A stretch of 64,000 bases of DNA from Escherichia coli (lineage in GTDB: Bacteria; Pseudomonadota; Gammaproteobacteria; Enterobacterales; Enterobacteriaceae), in the NCBI RefSeq assembly GCF_013315695.1, contig NZ_CP054353.1; one strand, written 5' to 3'. A program made the position numbers and the translations under genes. Shown here in pieces: positions 1,658 through 21,307 of the stretch; within the stretch, counting starts at the first letter, position 1; each line of letters begins with the position of its first letter. The notes below the pieces were generated by a model. The model was not told where the DNA came from. It saw only the letters and a program-made list of their open reading frames with translations, and ran no database searches.

Positions 1658-1693
1658 TAAGGAGATTTTTGAAAGGACTTTAACAAGCAGGAA

Positions 1694-3657: not shown

Positions 3658-3833
3658 GCCCGGACAGCGTCGGACAGCTCTTTCAGGCTGTATGCTGCTT
3701 TAAGCTTTTCCCATAACCACTGTGTTGTTATGTGCATCAGCAGGGCAGCCAGGGCTGCCCCCGCACTGAGGCATGTCGCCAGGCCAGTAAGAATCAGTGT
3801 CCATGCGGTGATTTCCCTGAGTATGTCAGCCAT
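3618..3833 (-). CDS. Small membrane protein
   Basis: 71 aa with one hydrophobic helix (WTLILTGLATCLSAGAALAALLM); overlaps neighbours by a few codons, consistent with an operon. Confidence 0.4.
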   Translation of the reverse strand: MADILREITAWTLILTGLATCLSAGAALAALLMHITTQWLWEKLKAAYSLKELSDAVRAWKRQKNTGDTEQ

Positions 3834-3847
3834 TGAATGCCTCCCGG

Positions 3848-4144
3848 TTACTCGTTCGTGTAAATCACGCCCAGTCGTGCAGCCAGACGTTCCAGTTTTT
3901 TCTGTTTGTGGAAGTCAATCAGCCGGTCCATCCCCTGAAGGCGCAGTTGCTCTGTCATGATTTCCACGTCTGCCAGCTCTGCCGCGAGGTCACTTTCGCT
4001 GCCCTGTCCGTTCAGGTTGCGGGCGGCACTGGCCGCCAGTTCAGCGGCCTCTTCTGCCAGTTTCAGGGCCTGTGCGTCCGGCCCGAAACGCTGCAGGGCC
4101 AGACGGTAGAGGGCGGTGCGGGTGAGTTCGGTGTTTCGTGTCAT
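3848..4144 (-). CDS. MazG-like nucleotide pyrophosphohydrolase (small all-alpha NTP-PPase)
   Basis: 98 aa; acidic helix motifs LAEEAAELAAS and ELADVEIMTEQL resemble the EExxE/ExxD metal-binding helices of MazG/HisE-type pyrophosphatases. Confidence 0.5.
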   Translation of the reverse strand: MTRNTELTRTALYRLALQRFGPDAQALKLAEEAAELAASAARNLNGQGSESDLAAELADVEIMTEQLRLQGMDRLIDFHKQKKLERLAARLGVIYTNE

Positions 4145-4153
4145 GCCGCGCCC

Positions 4154-4426
4154 TCAGTGCTTCCGGCTGACGGTGATGTGCAGGCCGCCTTCTGCAGTGG
4201 TTTCCATCCGGTACGGCACCTCATGCTCTGCCGTGTGGGTGAGTGTGTTCATCAGTACCTGCAGGGCAGCCTCCTTTCCGTTGGTCGCCACAATGGCCTG
4301 TGTGGCCATGCTGATTAGCGCCGTCAGGACGTGATTCACATCGGTGAGGTCGCGGCATTCACACTCGTTGACATAGTGTTCAACAAGGGTTCGGGTGCGC
4401 TGTCGTGCTTCCTGTGGGGTAATCAT
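4154..4426 (-). CDS. Hypothetical early protein
   Basis: 90 aa ORF in the early operon; no motif recognised. Confidence 0.4.
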   Translation of the reverse strand: MITPQEARQRTRTLVEHYVNECECRDLTDVNHVLTALISMATQAIVATNGKEAALQVLMNTLTHTAEHEVPYRMETTAEGGLHITVSRKH

Positions 4427-4617
4427 TGCGCGTCCTCCCTGTCAGGGCGGGAGAATTCCATGACGGGCACGTCCGCCGAAAAATGCTGGCTGCAGTACGG
4501 GCAGACCAGGGTGACACGTACTGCAGGTATGTGATACTTACCGGACATCACGGCGATGGCGCTGTGAAAACGCAGGGCTGTTATATCCCTCTCGCACTGA
4601 ATACATTTAAATATCAT
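4423..4617 (-). CDS. Small zinc-ribbon-like protein
   Basis: 64 aa with CxxC ... CxxC spacing (CIQCERD ... CPYCSQ). Confidence 0.4.
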   Translation of the reverse strand: MIFKCIQCERDITALRFHSAIAVMSGKYHIPAVRVTLVCPYCSQHFSADVPVMEFSRPDREDAQ

Positions 4618-4714
4618 AATTTAATTCTCCTCTGTTTCCGGCGTGCAGAAGCCCACGGCGCTGACGCCGGAATAAAAAAGAAAATGTTTTTATTAAATAA
4701 TTAACGTGGTGTGT

Positions 4715-5245
4715 TTACTGCACATCCTGCTCAAAAGGAATTATTGAAAAATCCTCAATGTCGCTTTTAATGGAAATACCGGGAATATTTTTCACGGCCT
4801 CTTTTTCATTCAGAATGGCATCTTTATTTATTTCCTCCTTTACACGAATAAAGCGCTCAAGCCCCAGACGTCTCAGCAGTTCAATGACATTATCCGCCCC
4901 GCGAATGCTGACTGACGGCGGACGGTTTCGCCACTGCACCTCGCCGGTGGTGAGGTTAGCGAACTTCACCTTCCCGTTGCCGGTCAGTTCATCACGGTGC
5001 GCCTCACACCATGTCTGGATACCGGACTGCAGTTCGGCCATGCGTTTTTTCAGGCTCTCGGTGAGCGGGGCATAACGTGCAGTGATGTCGCCAATGGTGT
5101 CATTCATTTCTGTTTCAGCCCTGACCAGTTCACGTTGCGCGTCACCAAGCAGTCTGATTCCCTCAATGACCTCTTCGCGTGTCCCCGGCACCCAGAGTGC
5201 TGCTGCGGCTTTGATACGTTTTGCCCCTTTTGTACTTTTTGCCAT
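4715..5245 (-). CDS. gam: Gam-like host-nuclease inhibitor (DNA-end binding, Ku-like)
   Basis: 176 aa; strong resemblance to Mu Gam as recalled (AKRIKAAAALWVP.., ..CEAHRDELT.., ..RPPSVSIRG.., ..IEDFSIIPFEQ). Confidence 0.85.
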   Translation of the reverse strand: MAKSTKGAKRIKAAAALWVPGTREEVIEGIRLLGDAQRELVRAETEMNDTIGDITARYAPLTESLKKRMAELQSGIQTWCEAHRDELTGNGKVKFANLTTGEVQWRNRPPSVSIRGADNVIELLRRLGLERFIRVKEEINKDAILNEKEAVKNIPGISIKSDIEDFSIIPFEQDVQ

Positions 5246-5272
5246 ATTTTATGACTCCTCCTGTTGTGCTGA

Positions 5273-5542
5273 TTACCACAAAGATTCCGGCCACACGACG
5301 CGACAGCCGTGCAGTTCGAAAACGCCCTGACGGAAATATCCCCTGTGGTCATGTCCGGTATACAGATAACAGGCCTTTCCCTGCTCAAGCATGCGCATGC
5401 AATGCGCACTCCGGGAAACGCGGATGACAGGTTTGTTACCCCTGATGGTGATGCTTTGTACATCCGTGTTCGTCGCCTTAAGCGCCATAATGGCTGACTG
5501 CACTTTGCTGATTTGCTGGTTGATACCTGTGGTGGATTTCAT
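5273..5542 (-). CDS. Hypothetical early protein
   Basis: 89 aa ORF immediately downstream of the transposition ATPase gene. Confidence 0.4.
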   Translation of the reverse strand: MKSTTGINQQISKVQSAIMALKATNTDVQSITIRGNKPVIRVSRSAHCMRMLEQGKACYLYTGHDHRGYFRQGVFELHGCRVVWPESLW

Positions 5543-5544
5543 TA

Positions 5545-6750
5545 TTAAACCCCTTTGACAACGTCAGCGTTGACCTGTGGAACCCCGATTTCAGCGGCCA
5601 GATTCATGGCGGCTATCACCAGGTTACTGACGGCCAGCGGATACAGCAGGCTGACCATATTTTTACGATGACTTCCCGGATTGCTCAGGCGGGCACGTAT
5701 GGCATCCACTGCGCTGGCGTCCATAATGTCCGTCAGTTGTTTACCGGCCCGTTGCAGTTTGAACGTCAGAAATTCTTCAAGGTTATTGTCCAGAGGCAGA
5801 AGTTCGACCACCTCACAACGCTGAACGACTTCACGGACTTCCATATTGCGTTCAGACAGTTTTGTCGCCAGTTCCGGCTGGCCAATCAGCACGATGGACA
5901 GCAGTTTTTTGAAACCGGACTCCAGCTCAAAAAAGCGTTTGAGGTGTTTCAGTGTCGGAATGGGCAGACTGTGGGCCTCCTCAATCACCAAAACGTGGCT
6001 GAACCCCGCCTGGCTGCTGTCTTTCAGGACGCGATGCAACTGGCGAAAGCGGGCGTCCTGACTGCGTCTGATGCTTTCCAGTGGTGCGATGGTACTGATA
6101 ATGGCTTCGGCAATCGCTGCTGCCTTCAGGGTTTTCCCTTTCACATCGTTGTCTTCCATAGCGATGATGTATGGCTCGATAACAATTACCGGCGCATTCT
6201 CGCGGTTGATACGTTCAGTCAGGTCGCGGCGCAGCGTGGATTTACCCGCACCGGACTCACCGATGACGGCCATAAACCCACCATGACGGGCTGTCTGGTA
6301 CAACGCCTCACGCACGTAGCGAATGTCCGGGGTGGTGAACACATCATCAGAACCCTGCATGGCTTCATCGGCGAACGGGTCACGGAAAAGACCAAACGCT
6401 TTTTTGGTTGCTGGAAATAACACCTGTTTTTTGAGTAACATATTCTCTTCCTCACTGAGGCTCGTTTTATCTGTGGTACCCGCTGTACGGGGCGTGGCTG
6501 CGCCCTGTACAGCATCAAAACTCTTCGTTGTATCAATCCCCTGACTTTCCAGCCAGGACGCAAGACGCCGGCGCACTTCTCCGGGGCTGGTGCGGGGCCA
6601 CGCGTTATGATTCACAATCTGGGCCAGCGTGGCCTCAGAAACATCGACAGCTCTCGCCACCACCGCCTGTGGGATACGGGCCTCTTTCAGTTGCTGCTTC
6701 AGTACCAGCATGTTTTCCTCCTCAGTTGCCGTTAACAATGCTGATAACAC
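5545..6750 (-). CDS. Transposition ATPase (AAA+; functional analogue of Mu B / TniB-like)
   Basis: 401 aa; Walker A GESGAGKST and Walker B-like HVLVIEEAH; N-terminal HTH-like segment; directly downstream of the transposase. Confidence 0.85.
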   Translation of the reverse strand: MLSALLTATEEENMLVLKQQLKEARIPQAVVARAVDVSEATLAQIVNHNAWPRTSPGEVRRRLASWLESQGIDTTKSFDAVQGAATPRTAGTTDKTSLSEEENMLLKKQVLFPATKKAFGLFRDPFADEAMQGSDDVFTTPDIRYVREALYQTARHGGFMAVIGESGAGKSTLRRDLTERINRENAPVIVIEPYIIAMEDNDVKGKTLKAAAIAEAIISTIAPLESIRRSQDARFRQLHRVLKDSSQAGFSHVLVIEEAHSLPIPTLKHLKRFFELESGFKKLLSIVLIGQPELATKLSERNMEVREVVQRCEVVELLPLDNNLEEFLTFKLQRAGKQLTDIMDASAVDAIRARLSNPGSHRKNMVSLLYPLAVSNLVIAAMNLAAEIGVPQVNADVVKGV

Positions 6751-8491
6751 TGCTGCGTGCCGGCGTGGTCAGCGTGGCCATGACTTCATCCAGTGCAGCT
6801 TCCGGTACGCCGTCCGGGTACTGTGCCGTTAACTGGCGGTAATGTTCCGGCGTCCAGGTAAGGCCGTCGGCGCTGAACTTATCGCGCAGGGCTTTCGCGG
6901 CCTCCACATGAGTCATGGGACGTTGTTCAGTGCGCGGCCCGCGTACGTCAGAGGCCTGACCACGCTTCGGCATATAGGCCGGAAGTGTGGTGTCGTCGAT
7001 ATGTTTATACGGGTCAAGCCGCCCGCCGAACGGCAGCGCCTTCGCCTTGCGTGCGGCGGCTGCATCTGCGGCGTTGTCTGTACCGGTAACCAGCGCTTCA
7101 GTTTCTTTTGCCGCCATCTGTGCCGAGGTTTCCGGCAGGGCTTTGTAACTTTCGCCAAATACCGCCGCGCCTTCAGCAAAGCCAAACTCGTTCTTTCTGA
7201 CCTCTTCGACCAGGAAGAACGTCTCGTGGCCGTCCTCACCGGTCAGAACCACCTGTGCCACATCGCTGCGCCATGGGTTACGGGTAATCATCAGTTTTTC
7301 ACCAACCAGTACGCCCGGTACCGTTGATACGTCAAATTCAGTGCCCCGGAACGAGACACGAAGTTTTGGCGTGACTTTGCGGAGTTCTGGTGCCGCCACA
7401 GCCAGTTCACGACATACCTCAACGGAAGGCGCTTTTTTCAGCTGCTCAGCAGTAATCTTCAGCCAGATATCCGTGCGGGTTTTACCGTGGCGGCTGTGAA
7501 CAGCCGTGGCGTTAAAGTGGCTGCGCCATTTCGCGGCCAGCGCGTTGAGTTCTTCCAGACTGTGAACCGGCCGGAACTTCAGCCCCGGCTCCAGCTTGCG
7601 TTCGATAATGTCACGCGCCTTTTCCACCTGTCCGGTGGCGCGGGCGTTATGCGGCTTGTGCGCTATCAGGTCGATGCCCAGTGAGCGGCACATGTTTTTC
7701 GTCATACCCGCGGTGTTTGCCGAGCCGGGGTCGAGATAGAGTATTTTCGGCACGCCGTGCAGCACGTCTGCGCCGCCACGCTCCTGCATGGCGTTGATAA
7801 GCACAGAGCACAGGTTCTCACCTGATTCCGCGCCCGTCACATACTCAACGTAAATCCAGCCGCTGGCATGGTCGGTAATCTCGTAACTCCACACGCGGTC
7901 ACTGGCGATACGGGCAAGGTTAGCGGGCTTGTTCTTGTAGAACTTCGCGCTGTCCATCACCTGCAGCCCTTTATGTCCATTGCTCAGGTAGTAAAGCGTG
8001 CAGAGTGAGGCGTCAATCTGCCAGACATGATTGGGATGCAGACTGGCCACTTCGGTATGTGGTGCAGGGGCATCCAGTTGTTCCGGGTGCAGGCCATAGT
8101 TACGCAGAGCACGGCTGATGGCATCTTCAGACAACGGGAAAAACTCACTGGTGGTTTCATCTGTTCTGCCTGCGGTGATAAAGCCGTTAGCCCGCAGGGT
8201 TTCCACTGCATCTGCGATGGAATAGAGACGCTTACCGTTCTTGCGGGTGGCCTCACGCAGTGTGGCAGATATCAGCGCGGCTTCGTCGCGGGTCAGGGCG
8301 CTGCGCCCGGCATCGGCGCGTTTTTTGCGTTTATCAGTCACAGAGACCTCCTTCAGCCTGCGCAGCAGAGTGGCGCGGGACATGCCAAGTTCAGCACAGG
8401 CAGCGTCGTATATTGCACCGCGTTTACCATGCCCCGCGTCACGTGCCGCGCGGGCGACATAAACCAGTCGTTCAGTCAGGGCAGCATTCAT
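6722..8491 (-). CDS. DDE transposase (Mu A-like, integrase-core fold)
   Basis: 589 aa; N-terminal HTH, central HVWQIDASL-type DDE core; paired with an AAA+ ATPase gene as in transposable phages. Confidence 0.85.
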   Translation of the reverse strand: MNAALTERLVYVARAARDAGHGKRGAIYDAACAELGMSRATLLRRLKEVSVTDKRKKRADAGRSALTRDEAALISATLREATRKNGKRLYSIADAVETLRANGFITAGRTDETTSEFFPLSEDAISRALRNYGLHPEQLDAPAPHTEVASLHPNHVWQIDASLCTLYYLSNGHKGLQVMDSAKFYKNKPANLARIASDRVWSYEITDHASGWIYVEYVTGAESGENLCSVLINAMQERGGADVLHGVPKILYLDPGSANTAGMTKNMCRSLGIDLIAHKPHNARATGQVEKARDIIERKLEPGLKFRPVHSLEELNALAAKWRSHFNATAVHSRHGKTRTDIWLKITAEQLKKAPSVEVCRELAVAAPELRKVTPKLRVSFRGTEFDVSTVPGVLVGEKLMITRNPWRSDVAQVVLTGEDGHETFFLVEEVRKNEFGFAEGAAVFGESYKALPETSAQMAAKETEALVTGTDNAADAAAARKAKALPFGGRLDPYKHIDDTTLPAYMPKRGQASDVRGPRTEQRPMTHVEAAKALRDKFSADGLTWTPEHYRQLTAQYPDGVPEAALDEVMATLTTPARSSVISIVNGN

Positions 8492-8494
8492 TGG

Positions 8495-9409
8495 TTATGC
8501 CTCCAGCCCGTTAATCTGTGGCGTCGGCTCAGTCAGCCATGAAGGCGCTGCATTGCCTGTTGGCTCGTCCGGCAGGTCAAATGTGGAGCGCAGGCTACGC
8601 GCTGTGCTTTCCAGTTGACAGACCAGGCCTGCCATGAAGTCTCTGGGGGTATCAATCATGTTTTCAGCACAATATGCGCACAGCGTCTCAAAAGCGCTGG
8701 ACAGTCGGACGGCGATAGCAGATTCCGCCTCAACCGCTAATGCTGTTACTTCCGCCCGCAGCTTCTTAACCTCCTCATCAGGCTCAGGCGGCTGAATACG
8801 GGATTTCTTCTCCAGTCTGGTGGAGAGTGAATCTATTTTTTCATTTTTGTCGGCGAGTACGCGCTGTTGTGCTGCGTTGGTTTCGCGCGCTTCGCGCAGG
8901 GCCTGACGCAATTCACGTACTGACATGCGATCAACGTCGTCAAGCGTCAGGCCGGCAACTGTGCCGCCGTCGGCCAATTCATCAAGTTCTTCATTATCCA
9001 GAACCATCAGGTCGTACAGTTTGGCTTTCCCCAAAACGCTCAACGTTGAGCGTTTTGTTGGCTCATCACCTTCTCCCAAAAACTTCATACTGGCTTGCAT
9101 CATGCGGCGAGCAACTTGTGGTGCAAGTCCGAGTTCATTTTCTAAAATGTTTGTAAAATCACCGTGTGGCTCATTTTCTTTTAAGATGATCAGCCGCTTA
9201 CCCGCTTCCAGCATAGATTCAGCACTCTGCGCCATATAAAAACGTGCTTCGTGAACAATGCGATCACGTTCATAAGGCAGTCCATCACCAAACTGCTGCA
9301 TAATTTCCATGCGATGCTGTGTCATAGCGTTCAAATTGACATTGATGTTATCTGACAGCGGAACCTCAACATTCAGTTCAGTGTTAACGGGTGATTTGGT
9401 GCGTCCCAT
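8495..9409 (-). CDS. Hypothetical protein with coiled-coil region, between ner-like gene and transposase
   Basis: 304 aa ORF; heptad-rich central region (..RELRQALREARETNAAQQRVLADKNEKIDSLSTRLEKK..). Not recognised. Confidence 0.45.
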   Translation of the reverse strand: MGRTKSPVNTELNVEVPLSDNINVNLNAMTQHRMEIMQQFGDGLPYERDRIVHEARFYMAQSAESMLEAGKRLIILKENEPHGDFTNILENELGLAPQVARRMMQASMKFLGEGDEPTKRSTLSVLGKAKLYDLMVLDNEELDELADGGTVAGLTLDDVDRMSVRELRQALREARETNAAQQRVLADKNEKIDSLSTRLEKKSRIQPPEPDEEVKKLRAEVTALAVEAESAIAVRLSSAFETLCAYCAENMIDTPRDFMAGLVCQLESTARSLRSTFDLPDEPTGNAAPSWLTEPTPQINGLEA

Positions 9410-9419
9410 TGATTACTCC

Positions 9420-9791
9420 TTACAAACGACTACCTGAAATAACTCGTTGGTTGATTTCGTTAATACGATCCTGTGCACGCGCCATCTCGTGACTGTGAGC
9501 CATGGCGATCTGTAGTAACTGGATTCCCGGTGCGAAACGTCCGTTCTCTAATTTCATGGCCAGTCCCTCTTCAATAAGGGTATTAAGTGCTCGATTGATA
9601 TTCGCCGGGGACTCCCCCAGGGCTGATGCCAGTTCACCGTTAGAAACACCGTTCAGAGCATGACCGCGTAGAGCTTTGAGTACACGTAGGATGCGGGTCC
9701 CAGAACTGGAAATATTTACTTTACTCATGTCACATTTCCATTTTTGCAATATGTGATAACCTGTTGCATATGTGGAAAATTTATGCCGCAT
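9420..9791 (-). CDS. Putative DNA-binding protein (HTH-like)
   Basis: 123 aa; segment LNGVSNGELASALGESPANINRALNTLIEEGL resembles a winged-helix/HTH element. Confidence 0.4.
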   Translation of the reverse strand: MRHKFSTYATGYHILQKWKCDMSKVNISSSGTRILRVLKALRGHALNGVSNGELASALGESPANINRALNTLIEEGLAMKLENGRFAPGIQLLQIAMAHSHEMARAQDRINEINQRVISGSRL

Positions 9792-9969
9792 TTGACGTGG
9801 GTTTTAATCCCAGTTTTACGGCAATTTCATGGGCTTTGCCGTAACGAGCTTTGGTCTGTCCATTGAGAACACGATAGACCTCATTGCGGCTGTAGCCGTG
9901 TTCTTCGGCCCAGCGGGTAAACGTGATACCACGCTGACGGAAGAGATTTTTAACTTGTTCGGAAGTCAT
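9781..9969 (-). CDS. ner: Ner/Nlp-family DNA-binding protein
   Basis: 62 aa; resembles Ner/Nlp family (..TFTRWAEEHGYSRNEVYRVLNG..KARYGKAHEIAVKLG); first gene of the leftward early operon, divergent from the repressor. Confidence 0.75.
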   Translation of the reverse strand: MTSEQVKNLFRQRGITFTRWAEEHGYSRNEVYRVLNGQTKARYGKAHEIAVKLGLKPTSNAA

Positions 9970-10018
9970 TGTTGTCTCCTTTGTTGATGCAATGATGTTT
10001 GTTTTATATGTGATAGAT

Positions 10019-10038
10019 TATGAGAACTATTGTTCTCA
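10019..10038. promoter_or_regulatory. Candidate operator: 8-bp inverted repeat ATGAGAAC-N4-GTTCTCAT between the ner-like and repressor genes
   Basis: Perfect inverted repeat read directly from the sequence in the divergent control region. Confidence 0.35.
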
Positions 10039-10481
10039 TTGTCAATGAGGTTTGTGTGAATTTTGATTCTCTTTGCGCGTCGCGGTTCAAAGCTGAGCGT
10101 TCGCGGTTATCACTCAAGCAGGCTGAAGTAGCAGCCCTTTGTGGCGTTTCAAGAGAAATGTGGGGGAAATATGAACGAGGGGTTGCTGTTCCCGGAGGTG
10201 AGTTACTTGCAGCCTTTGCAAGAATTGGGGCCAATGTACAGTTCATTCTTACCGGGGAGTCATCAGGTATAACTTTATCACGTGATGAAATGGAGTTACT
10301 GCAGCACTACCGGCAGGCACCATTACAGGTCAAAGGTTCAGTTTTGTCGGCCTTGACTACTGGCTCCTCCAGAGAACGGGCGGAACAGGTTATTCATGGA
10401 GATGTTCTGGGGAATGTTATCAAAGGTAACGTAACCATAGGAACAGGTGGAATAATGAACAAAAATACCAAGAGAAGATGA
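10020..10481 (+). CDS. Phage repressor (XRE-family HTH); start codon uncertain, possibly GTG at 10056
   Basis: 153 aa; HTH LSLKQAEVAALCGVSREMWGKYERG; divergent from the early operon as for a c-type repressor. Confidence 0.7.
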   Translation: MRTIVLIVNEVCVNFDSLCASRFKAERSRLSLKQAEVAALCGVSREMWGKYERGVAVPGGELLAAFARIGANVQFILTGESSGITLSRDEMELLQHYRQAPLQVKGSVLSALTTGSSRERAEQVIHGDVLGNVIKGNVTIGTGGIMNKNTKRR

Positions 10482-11464
10482 GTAAAGAGAAGCAAACAGT
10501 TAACGGGGATGTGGGTAACGTTGTCAGCGGTGATGTTACCATTCATAACTATTCTGCTGACATACTTCCTTCGGCCCAGCAACCAATTTCGTTGCTGCAA
10601 AAACGCGATTTACACAGATTGATGGATGAATTGGTTGATCTGGGGGAAAGTAAGCGCGAGCTATGGATGACGATCCACACGAAACTTAATACCAAAACAG
10701 TTAATGAAATGACTGCGGCTGATTATCATGGTGCGGTTGAGATCCTTCAGAGATATGCACAACAGATCCAGAATATGAAGGACTGTAATCTTCTGGTCAG
10801 CAAAATAATGGCGCTTACTGACCCTGGGTATCGTCTTGACCGTGACAGATACTGTCTGAAGCATTTCGGTACAACCCATCTTAAAGGCCTAGACAAAGAG
10901 CAGTTGCAGGCTGTGTTTGGTTATTTTGATGATCTGCTGAATATTCGTGATGAGAGTAAAACTCTATCACCTCCATCGGAAAGCGGTGCAAAATCAGTCG
11001 CAACTGTACCAACCAGAAGCCGGAAGCCTCATGTAGTAGTGTTGGGGGGAGTGTTAGTTCTTGTAGCAATATTTTTCGTGGGAATGATTGTGTTCGCTGG
11101 TAAATGGGGAAATGCCAAAGCAGTAGCTTCTACTGAAACCAGCGTTTTTAACATTAAAACCAACGATAAAATAATAGAAGATTCCATCCCCGCACTGCGC
11201 AGCATGTTTCCAGGGTTAAATAAGTACTCAGATGATTTCCATTCGGTTTCAAGCTACAAGCAAAAAACGGGCTGGCATACCCTTAAATTTACTGTATCAG
11301 CAAAGGCATCCGTCCCCGAAAATTATAGTGTTAAGGGCAAGGTTTGTTACATTAACATAAGCCCTGATGGTAGTTATGCTCGGGTTTTGACTGCTCCATG
11401 TCGTTCACTGCTACTTGATCAGCAAAGCACTCCTGACAGTAAATACCGTTTTATTCTTAAATAG
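10478..11464 (+). CDS. Hypothetical bitopic membrane protein, translationally coupled to the repressor
   Basis: 328 aa; ATG overlaps the repressor stop (ATGA at 10478..10481); single hydrophobic helix VVVLGGVLVLVAIFFVGMIVFAG around aa 186-208; no family recognised. Confidence 0.6.
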   Translation: MSKEKQTVNGDVGNVVSGDVTIHNYSADILPSAQQPISLLQKRDLHRLMDELVDLGESKRELWMTIHTKLNTKTVNEMTAADYHGAVEILQRYAQQIQNMKDCNLLVSKIMALTDPGYRLDRDRYCLKHFGTTHLKGLDKEQLQAVFGYFDDLLNIRDESKTLSPPSESGAKSVATVPTRSRKPHVVVLGGVLVLVAIFFVGMIVFAGKWGNAKAVASTETSVFNIKTNDKIIEDSIPALRSMFPGLNKYSDDFHSVSSYKQKTGWHTLKFTVSAKASVPENYSVKGKVCYINISPDGSYARVLTAPCRSLLLDQQSTPDSKYRFILK

Positions 11465-11545
11465 AAAATAACAGCTGAATTACCATGGGATCAGAAAAAA
11501 GACAAAGGCGGCATCATGCTGCGTTCTGAAATTTTAATGTAAAAG

Positions 11546-12136
11546 GTGATGAACATGGCAGGGATTCAGGTTATCGCAGGAAGTTTTCCTAAAGGGTGGG
11601 CAAGCATGGGGTTCGGTACCATCGTGTTTGCCAAAAAAACAAAACAAGGCTTTCCTGAAAATATTGTATTAAATCTGAAAGAAGAGCTTTTATCGATTGA
11701 ACTTGCGGATAGTGAAGAGGAAAGCCGTATAGGTAAGGCGGCAGGCGCAGGTTTGCTTGGTGGATTAATCTTTGGTGGTGCAGGGTTGGTCATTGGAGGT
11801 TTGCTTGGTGCGGCGGACAAGACGAAAAAAACTATCACTTTTAAGGCAATGTTTACGGGAAATAGGTTACTTCTGGCTAAAACAGATTCAAAAACTTTTG
11901 TAAAACTTCAGTCAATTGCTGCTGATAATGCCCATAACGCATCTGTAATCAACATGAAGCAAACTAATAGGGGCGATGTTTCTTCTCGTAAACAACTAAC
12001 AGAAAATCCACAGCAGCAAGACTTACCTGCGCCCGCTACAACAGTAAAAATGACTGCCAAAGATAAGTTAGAATCGGCTCTTGGGCTGGGAATCATCGTT
12101 ATAGCTGTTTGGGCAATAATACACTTCTTTTTTTAG
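11546..12136 (+). CDS. Hypothetical membrane protein with glycine-zipper segment and C-terminal hydrophobic anchor
   Basis: 196 aa; GAGLLGGLIFGGAGLVIGGLLGAA and C-terminal LGLGIIVIAVWAIIHFFF; possible RBS aaaggtga upstream. Confidence 0.5.
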   Translation: MMNMAGIQVIAGSFPKGWASMGFGTIVFAKKTKQGFPENIVLNLKEELLSIELADSEEESRIGKAAGAGLLGGLIFGGAGLVIGGLLGAADKTKKTITFKAMFTGNRLLLAKTDSKTFVKLQSIAADNAHNASVINMKQTNRGDVSSRKQLTENPQQQDLPAPATTVKMTAKDKLESALGLGIIVIAVWAIIHFFF

Positions 12137-12137
12137 T

Positions 12138-12160
12138 GCAGCCCTTCAGGGCTGTTTCTG
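12138..12160. terminator. Hairpin between convergent genes (possible bidirectional terminator)
   Basis: gcagccc-ttca-gggctg stem-loop followed by tttctgtt, between ORF 11546..12136 (+) and 12174..12650 (-). Confidence 0.4.
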
Positions 12161-12173
12161 TTCAGGAGGTATC

Positions 12174-12650
12174 TTAAGGATTATCCGGGGCGTTTTCCTG
12201 TTTGCCGTACTTCGGAGACGAACAACATTCTGTTGGCTGACCGGTGAGTTTACGTAACTCCTTCATGAGCAGCTCCTGATCGTAAACTGTCATCAGTGCC
12301 GCAATGGTGGCATGCAGTGCATCGGGCAGTATCCAGGGTTGCCGGCCCGTGGGGCATATAACATCCAGCAGCTCATTCGTCCGACAGATACGCTCCTCGC
12401 CGTATGACAACAGGCCCTGTCCCGTGTATTCCTCTAGCCTGATCACTGTGCCACCCCGTGGCTTCTGCCAGGTCGTCAGATCTTCGCCATTCATACGGCG
12501 CTCATTCTCCACGTCAGCAGCATCGACAATGACGCTGTTTCCGAGTTCCTGTTTCACCATCTCTTCTATCCGCGCCAGTACGTAACTTTTACCGCTGCCC
12601 ACAGGACCGGACACAGTGACAGTGATGACCGGATTCAGTGTGTGCGTCAT
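12174..12650 (-). CDS. Small P-loop NTPase / kinase-like protein
   Basis: 158 aa; Walker A GPVGSGKS at residues 15-22; convergent with the preceding membrane-protein gene. Confidence 0.55.
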   Translation of the reverse strand: MTHTLNPVITVTVSGPVGSGKSYVLARIEEMVKQELGNSVIVDAADVENERRMNGEDLTTWQKPRGGTVIRLEEYTGQGLLSYGEERICRTNELLDVICPTGRQPWILPDALHATIAALMTVYDQELLMKELRKLTGQPTECCSSPKYGKQENAPDNP

Positions 12651-12747
12651 ATCGTATTCTCCTCTGTGAATAATTCATCGTTTATCCTGCACATCCCGTA
12701 TCCCCGGCTCTCTTAACGCGCTTTAAAATCCTTCGCGCCCTGTATTT

Positions 12748-13131
12748 GTGATGCTGTCTCCACCAAACGAGGAGACACACATGAAAAACCTGAAAAAATT
12801 CATTCCCCCTGTTAAAAAACCTCGCCTCAGCGGCTGGCTGCTGACCTCAGTGCTGTTGCTGGGCACCATCGCTCTGGTCTCACCACAGCAGCTGCCTGTT
12901 GTGATCTACAAGCTGGCACTCATCACGCTGGCAGCAGTGCTGGGTTACTGGCTTGACCGTTCGCTCTTCCCCAAAGCCCGTCCCGGTCAGTACCTGAAAC
13001 ATGACGACAGGCTGATGGCTGAAGGGCGTTTCCCGGTACAGACCGGCCTTCACCTGGTGTTTTCTGCTGCGTTAATCCGCCGTGCACTGATTGTTGCAGC
13101 GGTCTGCCTGGCTGTTGCGATGGGGCTTTAA
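12748..13131 (+). CDS. Putative holin / small membrane protein upstream of the endolysin
   Basis: 127 aa with 2-3 hydrophobic helices (LLTSVLLLGTIALV, LALITLAAVLGYW, LIVAAVCLAVAMGL); position immediately before the endolysin gene. Confidence 0.45.
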   Translation: MMLSPPNEETHMKNLKKFIPPVKKPRLSGWLLTSVLLLGTIALVSPQQLPVVIYKLALITLAAVLGYWLDRSLFPKARPGQYLKHDDRLMAEGRFPVQTGLHLVFSAALIRRALIVAAVCLAVAMGL

Positions 13132-13133
13132 TC

Positions 13134-13874
13134 ATGAACTGGCCGCAGATCACCTGGATTGTATGCATGTCCCTGAAACTGGCTTTCGAAGCCTTTCGGG
13201 TCTTCATCAGAACCGAACGCCTGTCAGTCCGCGCCGGGACCTTTCTGGTTCATATGGCATGGGTATTCTTTGTCGCAATGTTGCTCTGGTGTGGCGGCTT
13301 TTTCAGCCAGGCATGCGCAGCACAACCTCCGCAGGCTGCGCTGCAGTATCGCGATGATGTGATCCGTAATGCCCGGCTTGAATGGGGACTGTCTGCGCCG
13401 GTGGCCGATTTCGCCGCGCAACTGCATCAGGAAAGCGGCTGGCGACCTGATGCGATCTCGCCGGCTGGCGCTCAGGGACTGGCGCAGTTCATGCCTGCCA
13501 CTGCCGACTGGATAAGCCAGTTGATACCGATGCTGAGCAGTCGTGAGCCGTTTAATCCGGCATGGGCTATCCGGGCGCTGGTCAGCTATGACCGCTGGCT
13601 GTGGCAGCGTGTCAGCGCCGCCAGTGACTGCGAGCGTATGGCCATGACACTGTCGGGCTATAACGGTGGTCTGGGCTGGGTACAACGGGACAGGCGGCTT
13701 GCATCACAGAAAGGTCTGGACAGCACCCGCTGGTTCGGACATGTCGCCACGGTGAATGCCGGACGCAATGCGGCCAGCTGGCGGGAGAACCGCCATTATC
13801 CGCAGCGCATCCTGCGCGAACTGGCACCGCGATATCTCACATGGGGAGGCAGCAGTTGTGTGGCATCTGGTTAA
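13134..13874 (+). CDS. Endolysin, lytic transglycosylase (SLT domain), possibly signal-anchored
   Basis: 246 aa; SLT-type motifs QLHQESGWRPDAIS, GAQGLAQFMPAT and SGYNGG; an N-terminal hydrophobic segment may mean a later start around 13254. Confidence 0.8.
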   Translation: MNWPQITWIVCMSLKLAFEAFRVFIRTERLSVRAGTFLVHMAWVFFVAMLLWCGGFFSQACAAQPPQAALQYRDDVIRNARLEWGLSAPVADFAAQLHQESGWRPDAISPAGAQGLAQFMPATADWISQLIPMLSSREPFNPAWAIRALVSYDRWLWQRVSAASDCERMAMTLSGYNGGLGWVQRDRRLASQKGLDSTRWFGHVATVNAGRNAASWRENRHYPQRILRELAPRYLTWGGSSCVASG

Positions 13875-14508
13875 AAAGCTGCCGTGGCGCGGCATTCTGC
13901 TGGCCATTCTTATCAATGCCTTTCTGGTCGGCCTGTATGCCATGGGATACAGAAGTGGTCATGACTCTGCAAAGCGTGACGGTGATACCGCGCTCAGTCA
14001 GTTGCAGTCAGCATTTGACGCGTACAAAACGGAGCAGGCAACGCTTGAGAATGCTGCGCTGCGGGCCTGGGCCAGACGGTATCAGGAGCAGGTGGCCGCC
14101 GGGCAGCGGGCTGAAGCCGGTTATCTTGAGCAGATTGCTCAACTGGAGAGCCGGAACAAACAACTACAGGGGCAAATTAACGATGTCACACAGCGCTGGA
14201 TTGATGAAAAAGGTAAGAGTCATCCCATTGAGTGCGTGTTTACTCGCGGTTTCGTGCGCCAGTACAACGCCGCACTCGGGTATGACAACGCATCTGTCGA
14301 CACCGGTCATTCAGACTCAGTTGCCGCCACTGGCACCCGCTCTGGCACAGCGACCGGGCAACCTGAAACCACTGACACCCGGTTACGCGATTCGGGTGTC
14401 TCCCAGCGTGACGTTCTCGCCAACATCATCGACAACGCAGGACAATGTCGTCGCTGGCGGAACCAGATAAACGCGTTACTGGATGAACGGGAAGGATTAC
14501 AGAAATGA
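13858..14508 (+). CDS. i-spanin (Rz-like), GTG start preceded by GGGGAGG
   Basis: N-terminal hydrophobic helix ILLAILINAFLVGLYAMGY followed by a coiled-coil-like periplasmic region; immediately after the endolysin. Confidence 0.6.
   Translation: MWHLVKKLPWRGILLAILINAFLVGLYAMGYRSGHDSAKRDGDTALSQLQSAFDAYKTEQATLENAALRAWARRYQEQVAAGQRAEAGYLEQIAQLESRNKQLQGQINDVTQRWIDEKGKSHPIECVFTRGFVRQYNAALGYDNASVDTGHSDSVAATGTRSGTATGQPETTDTRLRDSGVSQRDVLANIIDNAGQCRRWRNQINALLDEREGLQK
14204..14470 (+). CDS. o-spanin (Rz1-like lipoprotein) embedded in the +1 frame of the i-spanin gene
   Basis: MKKVRVIPLSACLLAVSC lipoprotein signal with lipobox Cys, followed by proline-rich PVIQTQLPPLAPALAQRPGNLKPLTP; entirely inside the i-spanin gene. 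Confidence 0.6.
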   Translation: MKKVRVIPLSACLLAVSCASTTPHSGMTTHLSTPVIQTQLPPLAPALAQRPGNLKPLTPGYAIRVSPSVTFSPTSSTTQDNVVAGGTR

Positions 14509-14831
14509 CACTGCAGGTTGAATTCTGGACGGTGGTGAGTTTTTTGCTCACCTTCATGGGGTTTGTGGGAGGGCTCGCCAAATGGTTGTTCAGTAAAACA
14601 GAAGAACGCCAGGCGGCACGATTCGCCTCTCTTGAACAGGCCCTGCAACAGTCCGCATCCAACTGGGGCGAGCTGGAAAAAGAATTTATGCGATTTAAAG
14701 CGGATTTACCGCTGAATTATGTCCGTCGCGAGGATTATATCCGTGGCCAGACAGTCATCGAGGCCAAACTGGACGCGCTTTATAACAAACTGGAAGTGGT
14801 ACAGCAGTACCGCAATACCGGAGGTCAATAA
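14505..14831 (+). CDS. Small membrane protein (Mu gp25-position)
   Basis: 108 aa; N-terminal hydrophobic helix VVSFLLTFMGFVGGLAKWLF; start overlaps the i-spanin stop. Confidence 0.45.
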   Translation: MTLQVEFWTVVSFLLTFMGFVGGLAKWLFSKTEERQAARFASLEQALQQSASNWGELEKEFMRFKADLPLNYVRREDYIRGQTVIEAKLDALYNKLEVVQQYRNTGGQ

Positions 14832-15142
14832 TGGTCGATATTACCCGGGTACGCCGCGAATCCCTGCGCTGGAGTCTGCTGGTTGCCCTGAACAAAACCC
14901 GCCCTTACACCGCCAGCGAAACGTTGCTGCTGGACGTGTCCCGCGCCATCTACCCGGACACCACGCAACTGGAGCTGCGCCGGGAGCTTGATTATCTGGC
15001 AGATCGCAAAATGGTGGAGCTGGAGAAGAGACCGTCCGGTGACTGGTTTGCCGATCTGAGTCGCCTTGGTGTGGATATTGTGGAATACACCGTGGAATGC
15101 GGCCCGGGTATTGCCCGACCGGAAAAATACTGGAGTGAGTGA
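14831..15142 (+). CDS. Hypothetical protein (Mu gp26-position)
   Basis: 103 aa ORF, translationally coupled to neighbours. Confidence 0.45.
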   Translation: MVDITRVRRESLRWSLLVALNKTRPYTASETLLLDVSRAIYPDTTQLELRRELDYLADRKMVELEKRPSGDWFADLSRLGVDIVEYTVECGPGIARPEKYWSE

Positions 15143-15687
15143 TTATGGGACGTCGCAGCAGCATTGATTCTCTGCCGACGGATGTCCGCCGCTGGCTGGA
15201 GCGGGCGCTGACGGAGAATAATTTCACCGGCTATGCTGAACTTGAAAGTTTGTTAAAAGAGAGGGGATATGTGATAACCCGCTCCTCCCTGCAGCGGTTC
15301 GGCTACAAAATGGAGCAGCAACTGGCCCGTGTTCGTGCGGCAACTGAAGCAGCCAGGCTGATGGCTCGTGAAGCGGGGGATGATGCGGATGACCGTTCTG
15401 CGGGACTGATGACGTTGATCCAGACGGAGATGATCGACATCCTGATGCGTCTGCAACAAGTCAGTGACGAGAATGATCCGACTGATCGGGCGAAATTGCT
15501 GGCCACCGCTTCCCGCAATATTGCGACCCTGACCCGCGCCTCTGTCAATCTCAAGCGTTTTCAGAGTGAGGTCAAGGAAAAAGCAGAACTTGCAGCGAAT
15601 GCGGCCGAGAAAATTGCCCGTAAGGGCGGATTGTCAAGCGACGCAGTACAGGCACTTCGTCGCGAGATTCTGGGGATTGCCACATGA
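15139..15687 (+). CDS. Terminase small subunit-like protein (Mu gp27-position)
   Basis: 182 aa immediately upstream of and overlapping the large terminase gene. Confidence 0.6.
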   Translation: MIMGRRSSIDSLPTDVRRWLERALTENNFTGYAELESLLKERGYVITRSSLQRFGYKMEQQLARVRAATEAARLMAREAGDDADDRSAGLMTLIQTEMIDILMRLQQVSDENDPTDRAKLLATASRNIATLTRASVNLKRFQSEVKEKAELAANAAEKIARKGGLSSDAVQALRREILGIAT

Positions 15688-17207
15688 GCCAGTTCACGCC
15701 GGTAATACCAGACACTTCCGGTTATGATGCCCCTCCCGTTCTGTTGCCCTACCAGCAGCGCTGGGTGGCAGATGCCTCTCCGCTTAAGGTGATAGAAAAG
15801 AGCCGTCGTACCGGTATTACATGGGCTGAGGCATCCGATAACGTACTGACCGCCGCCTCTTCTGCGCCAGCAGGCGGGATGAATGTGTATTACATCGCTT
15901 ATAACCAGGACATGACCGTCGAATACATTCAGGCGTGTGCGATGTGGGCACGGGCATTCAACTATGCGGCCAGTGAAATTGAAGAAGGATTCTGGGAAGA
16001 GGACGACGACGACAAACACATCAAGACTTACACCATCAAATTTCCTGACTCCGGCTTTCGTATTGTTGCGCTCTCCAGCCGCCCGTCTAACCTGCGTGGC
16101 CGTCAGGGTATTATTGTTATCGACGAAGCGGCGTTCCATGAGCAACTGGACGAACTGCTGAAAGCGGCGCTGGCGATGCTTATCTGGGGGGGAAAGGTAC
16201 GCGTTATCTCCACCCATGACGGTGACGACAATCCGTTCAATACGCTTATCGGGGATATCCGTGCCGGACGTCAGGGAGGCAGCGTACATCGCATCACTTT
16301 CCGGGAAGCCGTATCTGAGGGGCTGTTCCGGCGCGTCTGTCTGCGCACCGGGAAGGAATGGTCAGAGGCATCCGAGCAGGCCTGGATGGCGTCGGTGTAC
16401 AAATTCTACGCTGCCGGCGCATCCGAAGAGCTTGACTGTATTCCGGTCAACGGTGGCGGCGCCTGGCTGTCCCGTGCCCTGATAGAGTCCCGCATGTCCG
16501 CTGATACGCCGGTATTGCGTCTGACCTGTCAGGAAGGTTATGAACTGCTGTCTGATGAGGTTCGCTTCCACGAGACACAGGACTGGCTTGATGAGCATCT
16601 GAAACCCTTGCTGGAGGCACTCCCCGCTGATGCCCGCTCTTTCCTGGGGCGCGACTTTGGCCGTAGCGGTGATTTGTCGGTGGACTATCCCCTGCTGCAG
16701 GAGAAGAACCTGGTACGACGCGTGCCATTCGTACTGGAGCTGCGTAACGTGCCGTTCAGACAGCAGGAGCAAATCACCTGGTATCTGATGGATGGCCTGC
16801 CCGGTCTACTGGGTGCAGCGTTTGATGCCCGTGGTAATGGTGCCTATCTGGCTGAATACGCCATGCAGCGCTACGGCTCCAGCCGGGTTCAGCAGGTGAT
16901 GCCAACTGAAGGCTGGTACCGGGAGCATATGCCTCCGGTCAAAGCTGCACTGGAAGACGGTAACCTGGTGGACTTACCAAAGGATGAAGACACACTGGAT
17001 GACCTGCGGGCCGTTCAGGTGGTGAACGGTGTCCCCCGCGTGCCGGAGCAACGCTCAAAAGCAAAGGCTGACGGTGGTAAACGCCACGGGGATTCAGCCA
17101 TCGCACTGGCGCTGGCGTATTTCGCCAGCCGTGAAATTAACAAAGGGCCGGTGAAGGCAAGCTCACGCCGTCGTCGTCAGGCGGCCCGTATGCTGGAGGG
17201 ATTCTGA
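15684..17207 (+). CDS. Terminase large subunit (Mu gp28-like)
   Basis: 507 aa, directly before the portal gene; size and position typical of Mu-type TerL. Confidence 0.8.
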   Translation: MSQFTPVIPDTSGYDAPPVLLPYQQRWVADASPLKVIEKSRRTGITWAEASDNVLTAASSAPAGGMNVYYIAYNQDMTVEYIQACAMWARAFNYAASEIEEGFWEEDDDDKHIKTYTIKFPDSGFRIVALSSRPSNLRGRQGIIVIDEAAFHEQLDELLKAALAMLIWGGKVRVISTHDGDDNPFNTLIGDIRAGRQGGSVHRITFREAVSEGLFRRVCLRTGKEWSEASEQAWMASVYKFYAAGASEELDCIPVNGGGAWLSRALIESRMSADTPVLRLTCQEGYELLSDEVRFHETQDWLDEHLKPLLEALPADARSFLGRDFGRSGDLSVDYPLLQEKNLVRRVPFVLELRNVPFRQQEQITWYLMDGLPGLLGAAFDARGNGAYLAEYAMQRYGSSRVQQVMPTEGWYREHMPPVKAALEDGNLVDLPKDEDTLDDLRAVQVVNGVPRVPEQRSKAKADGGKRHGDSAIALALAYFASREINKGPVKASSRRRRQAARMLEGF

Positions 17208-19502: not shown

Positions 19503-19504
19503 CA

Positions 19505-21293: not shown

Positions 21294-21307
21294 TTTAAGG
21301 AGAGAGC

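Follow-up and report, generated by a model that had tools for sequence, protein, structure and literature searches.

A predicted lysis/lysogeny switch between divergent early and late genes in a BcepMu-type prophage of Escherichia coli

Positions 9420-10481 of the 64,000-nucleotide stretch of E. coli DNA analyzed here (the window) most probably form the lysis/lysogeny control region of an intact BcepMu-type prophage, whose early and late genes diverge from a central switch. Judging from the sequence, we give this reading a probability of about 93%. All early genes, from the gene of a 62-amino-acid helix-turn-helix (HTH) protein (9781-9969) to mor (1694-2092), are on the minus strand, and the repressor and late genes are on the plus strand. 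Because this divergence is a property of the whole gene array, chance is not at issue. The divergent early/late layout is an already known, published hallmark of BcepMu-like phages, and RefSeq already contains this prophage family in hundreds of E. coli genomes; the finding as such is ordinary. The analysis provides a predicted switch map with a promoter, an operator in its spacer, a terminator and three late-promoter dyads (Table 1).

Table 1. Features of the prophage and its borders (window coordinates)
Feature	Position	Strand	Details
Left target-site duplication ACTGGT	580..585		6 bp; in host gene dgcQ
Left prophage end	586..640	+	starts TGAT; two GAGATAAAT repeats, 597-605 and 620-628
Predicted intrinsic terminator closing early operon, just past mor	1621..1651	-	14-bp stem, then T run
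mor, Mor/C-family transcription activator, last early gene	1694..2092	-	Pfam Mor E 4e-43
gemA homologue	2064..2513	-	Pfam GemA E 8e-41; 44% identical to BcepMu gp02
gam, host-nuclease inhibitor	4715..5245	-	Pfam Phage_Mu_Gam E 2e-40
ExeA/AAA_22 ATPase	5545..6711	-	Pfam AAA_22 E 4e-20; 59% identical to BcepMu gp08
rve DDE transposase, BcepMu/Tn552 type	6722..8491	-	Pfam rve
DUF3102 protein, BcepMu gp10 homologue	8495..9409	-	41% identical
IclR-type winged-HTH regulator, BcepMu gp12 homologue	9420..9728	-	Pfam HTH_IclR; 34% identical to gp12
First early gene, 62-aa HTH, BcepMu_gp16 family, Cro/Ner position	9781..9969	-	
Predicted early promoter Pe	10017..10045	-	-35 TTGACA (10045..10040), 17-nt spacer, -10 CATAAT (10022..10017)
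Candidate repressor operator, perfect palindrome ATGAGAAC-TATT-GTTCTCAT	10020..10039		inside Pe spacer
Prophage repressor, P22-c2/XRE-type HTH, no peptidase domain	10056..10481	+	Pfam HTH_31/HTH_3
Repressor C-terminal tail motif GDVLGNVIKGNV	10398..10433	+	
328-aa Flk_N-type membrane protein, single transmembrane helix	10478..11464	+	PF27202 Flk_N
Membrane-protein N-terminal motif GDVGNVVSGDV, matching repressor tail	10505..10537	+	
Candidate Mor-dependent late promoter dyad TAACGCGCTTTAAAA	12714..12728	+	67 nt upstream of holin start
Lysis cassette: holin, SLT transglycosylase, spanin	12781..14508	+	
Head and P2-like tail morphogenesis genes	15145..36221	+	BcepMu gp27-gp52 order
Second late dyad copy (TAAAGCAGATTAAAA)	20106..20120	+	upstream of head gene 20178
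Third late dyad copy, one mismatch	32371..32385	-	upstream of baseplate gene 32422
Probable invertible tail-fibre segment	35752..37362		229-nt inverted repeats, 35752-35980 and 37134-37362
Gin-like serine DNA invertase	37426..37998	+	Pfam Resolvase E 6e-51; 43% identical to Mu Gin
Right prophage end	38025..38076	-	ends ATCA; two GCGATAAAT repeats, 38034-38042 and 38057-38065
Right target-site duplication ACTGGT	38077..38082		

Borders, integrity and prevalence of the prophage

The intact transposable prophage spans positions 586..38076 (37.5 kb) with TG..CA ends and disrupts the E. coli gene dgcQ; the exact borders of the element are now fixed. The initial annotation had placed the left end at about 586, which is borne out by the end repeats and the target duplication, and matches in other genomes begin at 585/586, the left prophage end. 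The termini (TGAT...ATCA) carry two GNGATAAAT repeats per end, those of the right end being inverted relative to those of the left, and align with the ends of BcepMu, whose left end is laid out likewise (TGA..GAGATATTT..GCGATATTT). TG..CA termini have been reported for the BcepMu group (PMC2628397). The empty site, reconstructed with one copy of ACTGGT, was found uninterrupted, with identity reaching 100%, in 5356 E. coli genomes. An identical prophage with the same internal layout is present at a different locus in ST131 strain 2822, and the family occupies up to 3-4 places per genome. Such copies at different sites imply that the element transposed recently and as a whole. Every core prophage gene is an open reading frame, and Rfam and tRNA scans of the prophage interior gave no matches.

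We also considered that two unrelated elements could lie back to back in a decayed or composite prophage, in which case the divergence would have no regulatory meaning. The region at 10.0-12.0 kb has a lower GC content (0.43) and unrelated accessory genes, and a Mu-like Gam and invertase are combined with an otherwise BcepMu-like remainder, as expected for a composite. However, a single pair of inverted ends and a single target duplication enclose all 37.5 kb, the core genes are uninterrupted, a 96%-identical relative has been deposited as a phage isolate, and the copies at other sites point to movement of the element as a whole. Hence, we regard a composite origin as very unlikely.

About one complete E. 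coli genome in nine harbours a BcepMu-like prophage, and 601 genomes carry the control region. The same arrangement was found as one aligned piece, at different insertion sites, in at least 100 independent complete E. coli genomes. These data bear on an assembly error, which the initial annotation had named as what would refute its reading: the segment 586..10000 could have been inverted during assembly, with the real prophage being arranged like Mu. The order and orientation of the genes are the same in at least 100 independently assembled genomes, in the phage isolates PhiKM and KP12, and in BcepMu, and the identical copy at another locus has the same internal layout. In addition, the left repeats and the 6-bp duplication are located exactly at 580-605 and mirror the right end, a match that an internal inversion would have broken. 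An assembly inversion is excluded on these grounds, and we consider its probability negligible.

Kinship with BcepMu and distance from Mu

A resemblance to BcepMu-type phages had been suggested, and a synteny comparison supported it. When the 54 prophage proteins were compared with BcepMu (NC_005882) by tblastn, 36 matched, with gene order and strand conserved, including mor, gemA, the ATPase, the transposase, gp10, gp12, gp16 and gp17, followed by lysis, head and P2-like tail genes. Along gp27-gp52 there were 25 consecutive matches at 31-75% identity, covering a Mu-like head and a P2-like tail. In the BcepMu record, genes 1-13 and 15-16 are on the bottom strand, and gene 14 and genes 17-52 are on the top strand; a two-cluster layout with the lysogeny control region at genes 16/17 has been described for this phage (PMC2771037). 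Our prophage likewise has its early genes clustered on the bottom strand and its late genes on the top strand, with the gp16 and gp17 homologues flanking the switch, and it also shares the rve-type transposase, the ExeA-type ATPase, the gp10 and gp12 homologues, a single Mor/C-family activator beside the left end, and TG..CA ends with two GNGATAWWT repeats each. Both have a holin-SLT-spanin cassette and the same late dyad before the lysis, head and baseplate genes. There are also differences. The E. coli prophage encodes a Mu-type Gam and a Gin-like invertase and has an invertible tail-fibre segment; the invertase and the segment are absent from BcepMu itself. Between repressor and lysis genes the two phages carry different accessory genes, and the gene that follows the repressor is similar to gp18 in its N-terminal motif alone. 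Megablast of window positions 1-20000 gave no BcepMu match, and the kinship is thus at the protein level; the genera of the ICTV are, in practice, delimited by genus-level nucleotide similarity. The nearest phage isolate is PhiKM (PQ738613), with 96% identity over the 55% of the query that aligned, and it is filed under Bcepmuvirus. PhiKM and the E. coli prophages of JJ1887, IAI39 and CE10 have the same gene order as the prophage described here.

In Mu, the repressor had been said to be at the left with the early genes reading rightward, and the Mu record (NC_000929) agrees: c is at the far left on the minus strand, and ner, A and B through mor, C and lys read rightward. Like Mu, our prophage is transposable, has TG..CA ends and short target duplications, encodes homologues of mor, gemA, gam, the terminase and head genes, and carries a Gin-type invertase with an invertible fibre segment. 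In contrast to Mu, the block corresponding to c-to-mor is reversed with respect to the late genes, a single Mor/C gene is present instead of two, and the target duplication is 6 bp, compared with 5 bp in Mu. Of the early genes, only mor, gemA and gam match Mu, and these are likewise reversed with respect to the late genes. Homology to Mu does not extend to the transposase, the ATPase, the repressor or the first early gene, and Mu A, B, c and ner had no match among the prophage proteins by tblastn or blastp.

These comparisons also address the possibility that the prophage is a true Mu relative of the Muvirus lineage in which the c-to-mor early block was recently inverted, which would make it a new rearranged Mu variant and not a member of a lineage with this layout as its ancestral state. 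The mor, gemA and gam genes, some head genes and the Gin-like invertase do match Mu, at 27-62% identity, but the transposase and ATPase match BcepMu gp09 (68%) and gp08 (59%) rather than Mu A and B, gp17 and gp16, not Mu c and ner, are the homologues of the repressor and of the first early gene, and the tail genes follow the P2-like order of BcepMu. Moreover, the layout is common to relatives from Burkholderia, Klebsiella, Serratia and Pseudomonas, and is therefore old. A recent rearrangement of a Mu phage is accordingly highly improbable, and we interpret the element as a member of the BcepMu group.

The early operon, the switch and the late genes

The initial annotation had assigned mor, gemA, gam, the ATPase, the transposase and a gene at the position of ner to the minus strand, all of which Pfam searches and the existing annotation confirmed. 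By tblastn, the mor product is 55% identical to BcepMu gp01 and 31% identical to Mu Mor. Gam is 61% identical to Mu Gam and had no tblastn match in BcepMu. The transposase is 68% identical to BcepMu gp09 over 581 amino acids, with no tblastn match to Mu A, and the adjacent ATPase is the predicted transposition helper in place of MuB. The open frame of the IclR-type HTH gene continues to 9791; PHROG 1368 (E 2e-44) spans residues 1-100 of the 102-amino-acid form. The first early gene had been called ner-like, which holds for its position and not for its homology: its product belongs to TIGR04111 BcepMu_gp16 (94.4 bits versus a cut-off of 34), is 45% identical to BcepMu gp16 and has no similarity to Mu Ner. 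Homology of the switch genes to Ner or Mu c was rejected, as blastp and tblastn gave no matches. The predicted terminator past mor has a folding energy of -20.1 kcal/mol (z -6.45).

On the plus strand, the repressor expected from the initial annotation was confirmed as an XRE/P22-c2-type HTH protein ending at 10481. RefSeq starts the gene at ATG 10020, and an alternative GTG at 10056 is preceded by a GAGG ribosome-binding site. The protein is 39% identical to BcepMu gp17 over 134 amino acids with an alignment offset that fits GTG 10056, and a Serratia homologue has been called at 140 amino acids. From sequence, translation probably starts at GTG 10056 rather than at the annotated ATG. A search of the PDB matched the repressor to P22 c2 (E 9e-5; Foldseek TM 0.83-0.85). 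No C-terminal S24 peptidase was found, and residues 70-141 comprise a short helical region and a tail. Hence, the HTH matches that of P22 c2, but the domain for RecA-dependent self-cleavage of lambdoid and P22-type CI repressors is absent. The repressor does not abut the lysis genes, as had been thought; three uncharacterized accessory genes (10478-12650; GC 0.43, one of them on the minus strand) lie between it and the holin gene, which starts at 12781. For these genes and for those at 782-1579, PADLOC defence models gave nothing significant, and Pfam gave only a weak AAA_30 match (12174-12650, E 0.003, below the threshold of that family).

The predicted early promoter Pe agrees with the consensus at 11 of 12 positions and is the sole match of a consensus scan of 9300-10700. 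Equivalent leftward promoters are predicted in BcepMu and KP12. The palindrome within the Pe spacer, our candidate operator, is unique in the 64-kb window even with 3 mismatches allowed, and no further copies were found there; well-studied switches usually carry several operators, and this prophage has one candidate. The 10-mer ATATGTGATA (9749 and 10006) was rejected as a second operator, since its 6 occurrences in the window versus 2.7 expected are not significant. Comparing five immunity types, we found that each has a dyad of its own at this position, and that the length of the Pe spacer is constant; in the other types read, the -35 box at the same spacing is TTGATA, TTGACT, TTGACA or a weak CTGGCA. 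PhiKM has a different immunity module, with homology ending at window position 10021/10022. It has the palindrome TGCTCATAATTATGAGCA and a 118-amino-acid repressor without the tail motif described below, lacks a Flk_N partner gene, and has a Dam-type methylase region after the repressor. Immunity modules are swapped at an exact joint within the early promoter. Between immunity types with differing repressors and palindromes, the gp16-type protein shows 87% conservation, and its target must therefore lie elsewhere than the palindrome.

We propose the following course of regulation. Pe, a predicted strong sigma-70 promoter, would fire leftward over about 8.4 kb, and its transcript would encode the gp16-type and IclR-type HTH proteins, gp10, the transposase, the ATPase, gam, small genes, gemA and mor before stopping at the predicted terminator (1651..1621). 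In a lysogen, the repressor would bind the single palindrome that fills the Pe spacer (10020-10039) and thereby block Pe. A consensus scan of 9300-10700 gave no sigma-70 promoter reading rightward into the repressor gene; an extended -10 element read by eye, TGaTAGATT (10011-10019), is the best candidate. It overlaps the -10 box of Pe on the opposite strand, and the two promoters would thus be mutually exclusive. The link from early to late genes would act in trans and not by read-through: Mor, the last early product, is predicted to switch on three late promoters that read rightward into the lysis, head and baseplate genes and each carry the dyad TAAMGCNNNTTAAAA. The operator region of Mu also serves as a transposition enhancer near the left end. 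With a link in trans and a transposase other than MuA, nothing would force the switch of a BcepMu-type prophage to the genome end.

The late dyad has 5 matches in the window versus 0.45 expected. In BcepMu there are 3 matches versus 0.06 expected, at the three equivalent positions: the counterpart of the lysis-gene dyad is at 11486, that of the second copy at 18813 (18301 in KP12) and that of the third at 30772. At the far end of the late region, the minus-strand genes inside the tail-fibre segment encode Collar and tail-fibre-assembly domains.

A motif common to the repressor and a membrane protein

The start of the membrane-protein gene overlaps the repressor stop codon (ATGA), and the two products carry matching motifs, IHGDVLGNVIKGNVTI in the repressor tail and VNGDVGNVVSGDVTI at the partner N-terminus. 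The two sites are the only matches in a six-frame translation of the window, and the N-terminal motif is among the best-conserved stretches of the membrane-protein family. A family profile of the membrane protein compared with BcepMu gp18 aligned at the motif alone (E 0.27), and a nucleotide search of phages with the repressor and membrane-protein region gave no match. BcepMu, Pseudomonas transposable phages and P2-like phages of Burkholderia and Ralstonia have cognate pairs of this kind as well, with the motif subtypes FHGxVGQ, NRVAGRDF and GGVQVG. Across 33 non-redundant phage gene pairs the motif co-varies between the partners: two thirds of the cognate pairs (22/33) score above the 99th percentile of shuffles, and the mean motif score is 39 for cognate versus 24.7 for non-cognate pairs (permutation p <= 5e-5).

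We tentatively suggest, at somewhat less than even odds, that the matched motifs are a direct contact interface that sets the pairing of repressor and membrane protein and ties the lysis/lysogeny switch to a membrane partner. The partner might hold the repressor back or set it free, or it might work by amyloid-like templating, as in the E. coli defence pair Bab/Agp. If functional, the matched motif would be an unexplored control route for prophage repressors that lack a self-cleaving domain and are RecA-insensitive. Our literature search found no description of matched repressor/membrane-protein motifs, and the shared motif is possibly new.

The closest parallels are the amyloid signalling motif pairs of adjacent genes (BASS1-11, among them the RHIM-like BASS3, and E. 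coli Bab/Agp), in which a Gly/Val/Gln/Asn-rich motif of about 15-20 amino acids likewise lies C-terminally in one protein and N-terminally in the product of the next gene. As in BASS pairs, motif subtypes co-vary between the partners and are joined to several unrelated partner domains, and the identity within pairs is 56% in our set compared with the reported 43-56%. However, an XRE repressor is here paired with a Flk_N-type membrane protein, in place of an NLR/STAND-type sensor with a membrane-targeting or enzymatic cell-death effector. A Pfam search of the motif regions at E <= 10 detected no RHIM, bactofilin or other family, and the sole resemblance to described motifs is the G-V-Q-V-G core of BASS3/RHIM in one subtype, at two loci.

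AlphaFold2 modelled the membrane protein alone with a confident helical domain (residues 31-155), an alpha/beta C-terminal domain (221-328) and a disordered motif, and a Foldseek search of the PDB with this model found no relative (best E 0.12). In a repressor-linker-partner fusion the globular domains were again confident, and short beta strands were predicted in both motifs at low confidence (pLDDT 40-56).

Gene order and relationship to BcepMu and Mu

When the 54 prophage proteins were compared with BcepMu using tblastn, 36 gave matches, with identical order and strands. Among these are the transposase (68%) and ATPase (59%), gp10, gp12, gp16 and gp17, and nearly every lysis, head and tail gene. 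Among the early genes only mor, gemA and gam matched Mu by tblastn, and in Mu these are oriented the other way round with respect to the late genes. The contrast is directly visible in the deposited gene tables of both phages, which show the Mu repressor at one end with early genes reading rightward, as the initial annotation had stated. BcepMu genes 1-13 occupy the bottom strand, genes 17-52 the top strand, with the region controlling lysogeny at genes 16/17 and the lysis cassette after it (PMC2771037). The terminal 45 nt of both prophage ends align in register with the BcepMu ends; TG..CA termini are described for the BcepMu group (PMC2628397). The closest phage isolate, PhiKM (PQ738613; 96% identity over the aligned 55% of the query), is filed under Bcepmuvirus, an assignment previously reported for ST131 prophages. 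The gene tables, the tblastn matches and the published BcepMu map thus bear out the resemblance to BcepMu-type phages suggested in the initial annotation, and support a prophage of the BcepMu type with the standard divergent layout, an arrangement that is already known and ordinary. Gam shares 61% identity with its Mu counterpart and had no BcepMu match; hence, Mu-like and BcepMu-like genes are combined as a mosaic in the early region.

The ORF list, Pfam, PHROGs, NCBIfam and the RefSeq annotation agreed on the layout (Table), placing all named early genes on the minus strand and the repressor, like the late genes, on the plus strand, as first described. Three details changed. The protein labelled ner-like belongs to the BcepMu_gp16 family (94 bits against TIGR04111, cut-off 34) and lacks similarity to Mu Ner; the repressor and the lysis genes are not adjacent, low-GC accessory genes of about 2.3 kb in total lying between them; and the repressor probably starts at GTG 10056. 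This accessory block (GC 0.43) encodes an Flk_N-type protein, a protein of 193 aa containing hydrophobic stretches and, on the minus strand, a 158-aa P-loop protein; none of its genes matched any known defence model.

Table. Features of the prophage, and immunity types of relatives
Feature	Coordinates	Strand	Remarks
mor	1694-2092	-
gemA	2064-2513	-
Run of small genes	between gemA and gam	-
gam	4715-5245	-
ExeA/AAA_22 ATPase	5545-6711	-
rve DDE transposase	6722-8491	-
DUF3102 protein	8495-9409	-
IclR-type winged HTH	9420-9728	-
62-aa HTH protein	9781-9969	-	BcepMu_gp16 family, TIGR04111
Pe (predicted)	-35 10045..10040, -10 10022..10017	-	TTGACA, 17-nt spacer, CATAAT; 11/12 consensus positions
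Candidate operator	10020-10039		perfect palindrome ATGAGAAC-TATT-GTTCTCAT
XRE-type repressor	end at 10481	+
Repressor tail motif	10398-10433	+
Partner N-terminal motif	10505-10537	+
Three accessory genes	10478-12650		between repressor and lysis cassette
Late dyad TAAMGCNNNTTAAAA	12714-12728		upstream of holin (lysis)
Holin-SLT-spanin lysis cassette	from 12781	+
Head and tail genes	after lysis cassette, to 36221	+
Late dyad TAAMGCNNNTTAAAA	20106-20120		upstream of head gene 20178
Late dyad TAAMGCNNNTTAAAA	32371-32385		upstream of baseplate gene 32422
JJ1887/PhiKM immunity type			-35 TTGATA; dyad TGCTCATAATTATGAGCA
CU39ES-1 immunity type			-35 TTGACT; dyad TGGTG-N10-CACCA
Serratia (L093) immunity type			-35 TTGACA; dyad GTGATCTATACATCAC
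L096 (relative locus) immunity type			dyad GGTATTCA-TT-TGAATACC

A strong terminator is predicted after mor (1651..1621, -20.1 kcal/mol, z -6.45). Between it and the left prophage end lie two uncharacterised genes (782-1579; 53 aa, plus strand; 210 aa, minus strand), with a 10/12 promoter-like site (709-738) upstream of the 53-aa gene. The dyads preceding late genes matched five times in the window (0.45 expected) and occur at three equivalent places in BcepMu (3 matches, 0.06 expected) and at two of the three in the relative KP12 (OM835952), making them candidate Mor-dependent late promoters. Mor acting at these sites would switch on the late genes; owing to this proposed dependence, an early operon directed away from the late genes could still activate them. 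The KP12 record is filed under Vequintavirinae, though the clone is a BcepMu-like element. In the tail-fibre region (35752-37998), 229-nt inverted repeats (90% complementary) bound a 1153-nt segment with alternative tail-fibre tip and assembly genes, adjoined by a Gin-like invertase; BcepMu has been described as having no invertible tail-fibre system.

Prophage borders and assembly orientation

The prophage begins with TGAT and ends with ATCA (sequence at 580-640 and 38025-38082). Each end carries two GNGATAAAT repeats, the left pair inverted relative to the right; this 9-mer occurs five times in the window, four of them at these ends. ACTGGT lies on either flank. A 600-nt empty-site query, joining both flanks via a single ACTGGT, aligned without interruption in 5356 of the 5426 complete E. 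coli genomes (identity up to 100%); therefore, the prophage spans 586..38076 (37,491 bp) and its target duplication measures 6 bp.

An inversion of 586..10000 in the assembly, set beforehand as evidence against the described orientation, is excluded by other genomes and by the intact borders. The same gene order was found as a single aligned piece in at least 100 complete genomes, the control region is present in 601 of 5426 genomes, and in ST131 strain 2822 a gene of a lambdoid prophage harbours an identical copy. Both the inverted terminal repeats and the target duplication coincide exactly with the borders.

Window 1-14000 is 100% identical to the E. coli MSB1_4I chromosome (NZ_LR898874). 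RefSeq annotates a truncated dgcQ ending at 584; the prophage splits dgcQ (yedQ) into parts at 1-585 and 38083-39026. The gene product is a diguanylate cyclase that regulates cellulose synthesis, and DgcQ is therefore expected to be absent from the strain. Beyond the prophage, host features include the small RNA DsrA (40034-40120) and a tRNA Gly-Cys-Leu cluster (61349-61651).

Predicted early promoter and operator, and the repressor

A consensus scan of 9300-10700 found a single sigma-70-like site, the predicted leftward early promoter Pe, whose spacer is filled by a palindrome that is unique in the window with up to three mismatches permitted. Strong leftward promoters are also predicted beside the repressor start in BcepMu and KP12. 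The homology to PhiKM stops inside the Pe -10 hexamer. For the control region, 465 of the 5426 E. coli genomes fall into an 80-90% identity band, and for the records of this band among the matches listed (28 of 40) the match is restricted to 9420-10021 (82-83%). Position 10021/10022 is a precise mosaic joint, to the right of which repressor, palindrome and accessory genes are exchanged as a module while the Pe -35 keeps its 17-nt spacing. Right of the joint, repressor and dyad are particular to each immunity type, with the -35 hexamer still 17 nt from the -10 (Table). This co-variation provides good comparative support for the predicted operator within the early-promoter spacer. The 10-mer ATATGTGATA occurs in each of the two intergenic stretches of the control area (9749-9758 and 10006-10015) and is nearly conserved in other immunity types, where the second copy differs by one base. 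Its occurrence across the window is statistically not unusual; it may be a target of the conserved gp16-type protein.

The repressor has an N-terminal domain of the P22 c2 type and no peptidase domain. Judged from sequence, it probably starts at GTG 10056, which is preceded by GAGG, and not at the RefSeq ATG 10020. We favour the GTG because the annotated ATG falls within the candidate operator palindrome and early promoter, the alignment offset to gp17 fits, and the Serratia homologue has a gene call of 140 aa and a GTG in the corresponding position. Over-long starts also occur in relatives, the CU39ES-1 repressor annotation overlapping the divergent gene. The consensus scan of 9300-10700 found no repressor promoter; our best guess is an extended -10 (TGaTAGATT, 10011-10019) that overlaps the Pe -10. 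The repressor gene is unannotated in the PhiKM record, which contains an open XRE-type frame (L001 28666-29022) on the strand opposite to the early genes.

A motif shared by the repressor and its neighbour

The start of the gene following the repressor overlaps the repressor stop (ATGA); its product is a 328-aa membrane protein, the partner. The repressor C-terminus (...IHGDVLGNVIKGNVTIGTGGIMNKNTKRR) and the partner N-terminus (MSKEKQTVNGDVGNVVSGDVTIHNY) share the motif GDVxGNVxxGxV, which matched only these two sites in the six-frame translation of the window. Pairing of this kind also occurs in BcepMu, Ps59, AP3 and RsoM1USA, the motif variant differing from one to the next. From 79 viral-contig loci encoding repressor homologues we obtained 33 non-redundant pairs; in 22 of these the tail scored against the N-terminus above the 99th percentile of shuffles, and over all 33 the mean score was 39 for cognate versus 24.7 for non-cognate pairs (permutation p ≤ 5e-5). 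Cognate pairs comprise several motif subtypes, from BcepMu-like, P2-like and Pseudomonas transposable phages, and the two motifs of a pair co-vary. Amino-acid identity across the motif amounts to 56% and third-codon-position identity to 38%, and the latter, low value argues that the similarity is kept at the protein level and does not stem from recent gene conversion. With the motif excluded, most partners form one family (Pfam Flk_N); a cognate motif is also present in three or more further, unrelated types of partner. In the E. coli-type partner family, the motif ranks among the most strongly conserved segments. AlphaFold2 predicted the N-terminal 30 residues of the partner alone to be disordered, and short strands in both motifs of a repressor-linker-partner fusion (pLDDT only 40-56). 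The motif regions matched no motif model, and the literature searched contained no report of a repressor/membrane-protein motif pairing. The gene-pair logic is like that of amyloid signalling motifs in bacteria, the E. coli Bab/Agp pair among them, but the partner proteins of those systems differ from the repressor/Flk_N-type pair.
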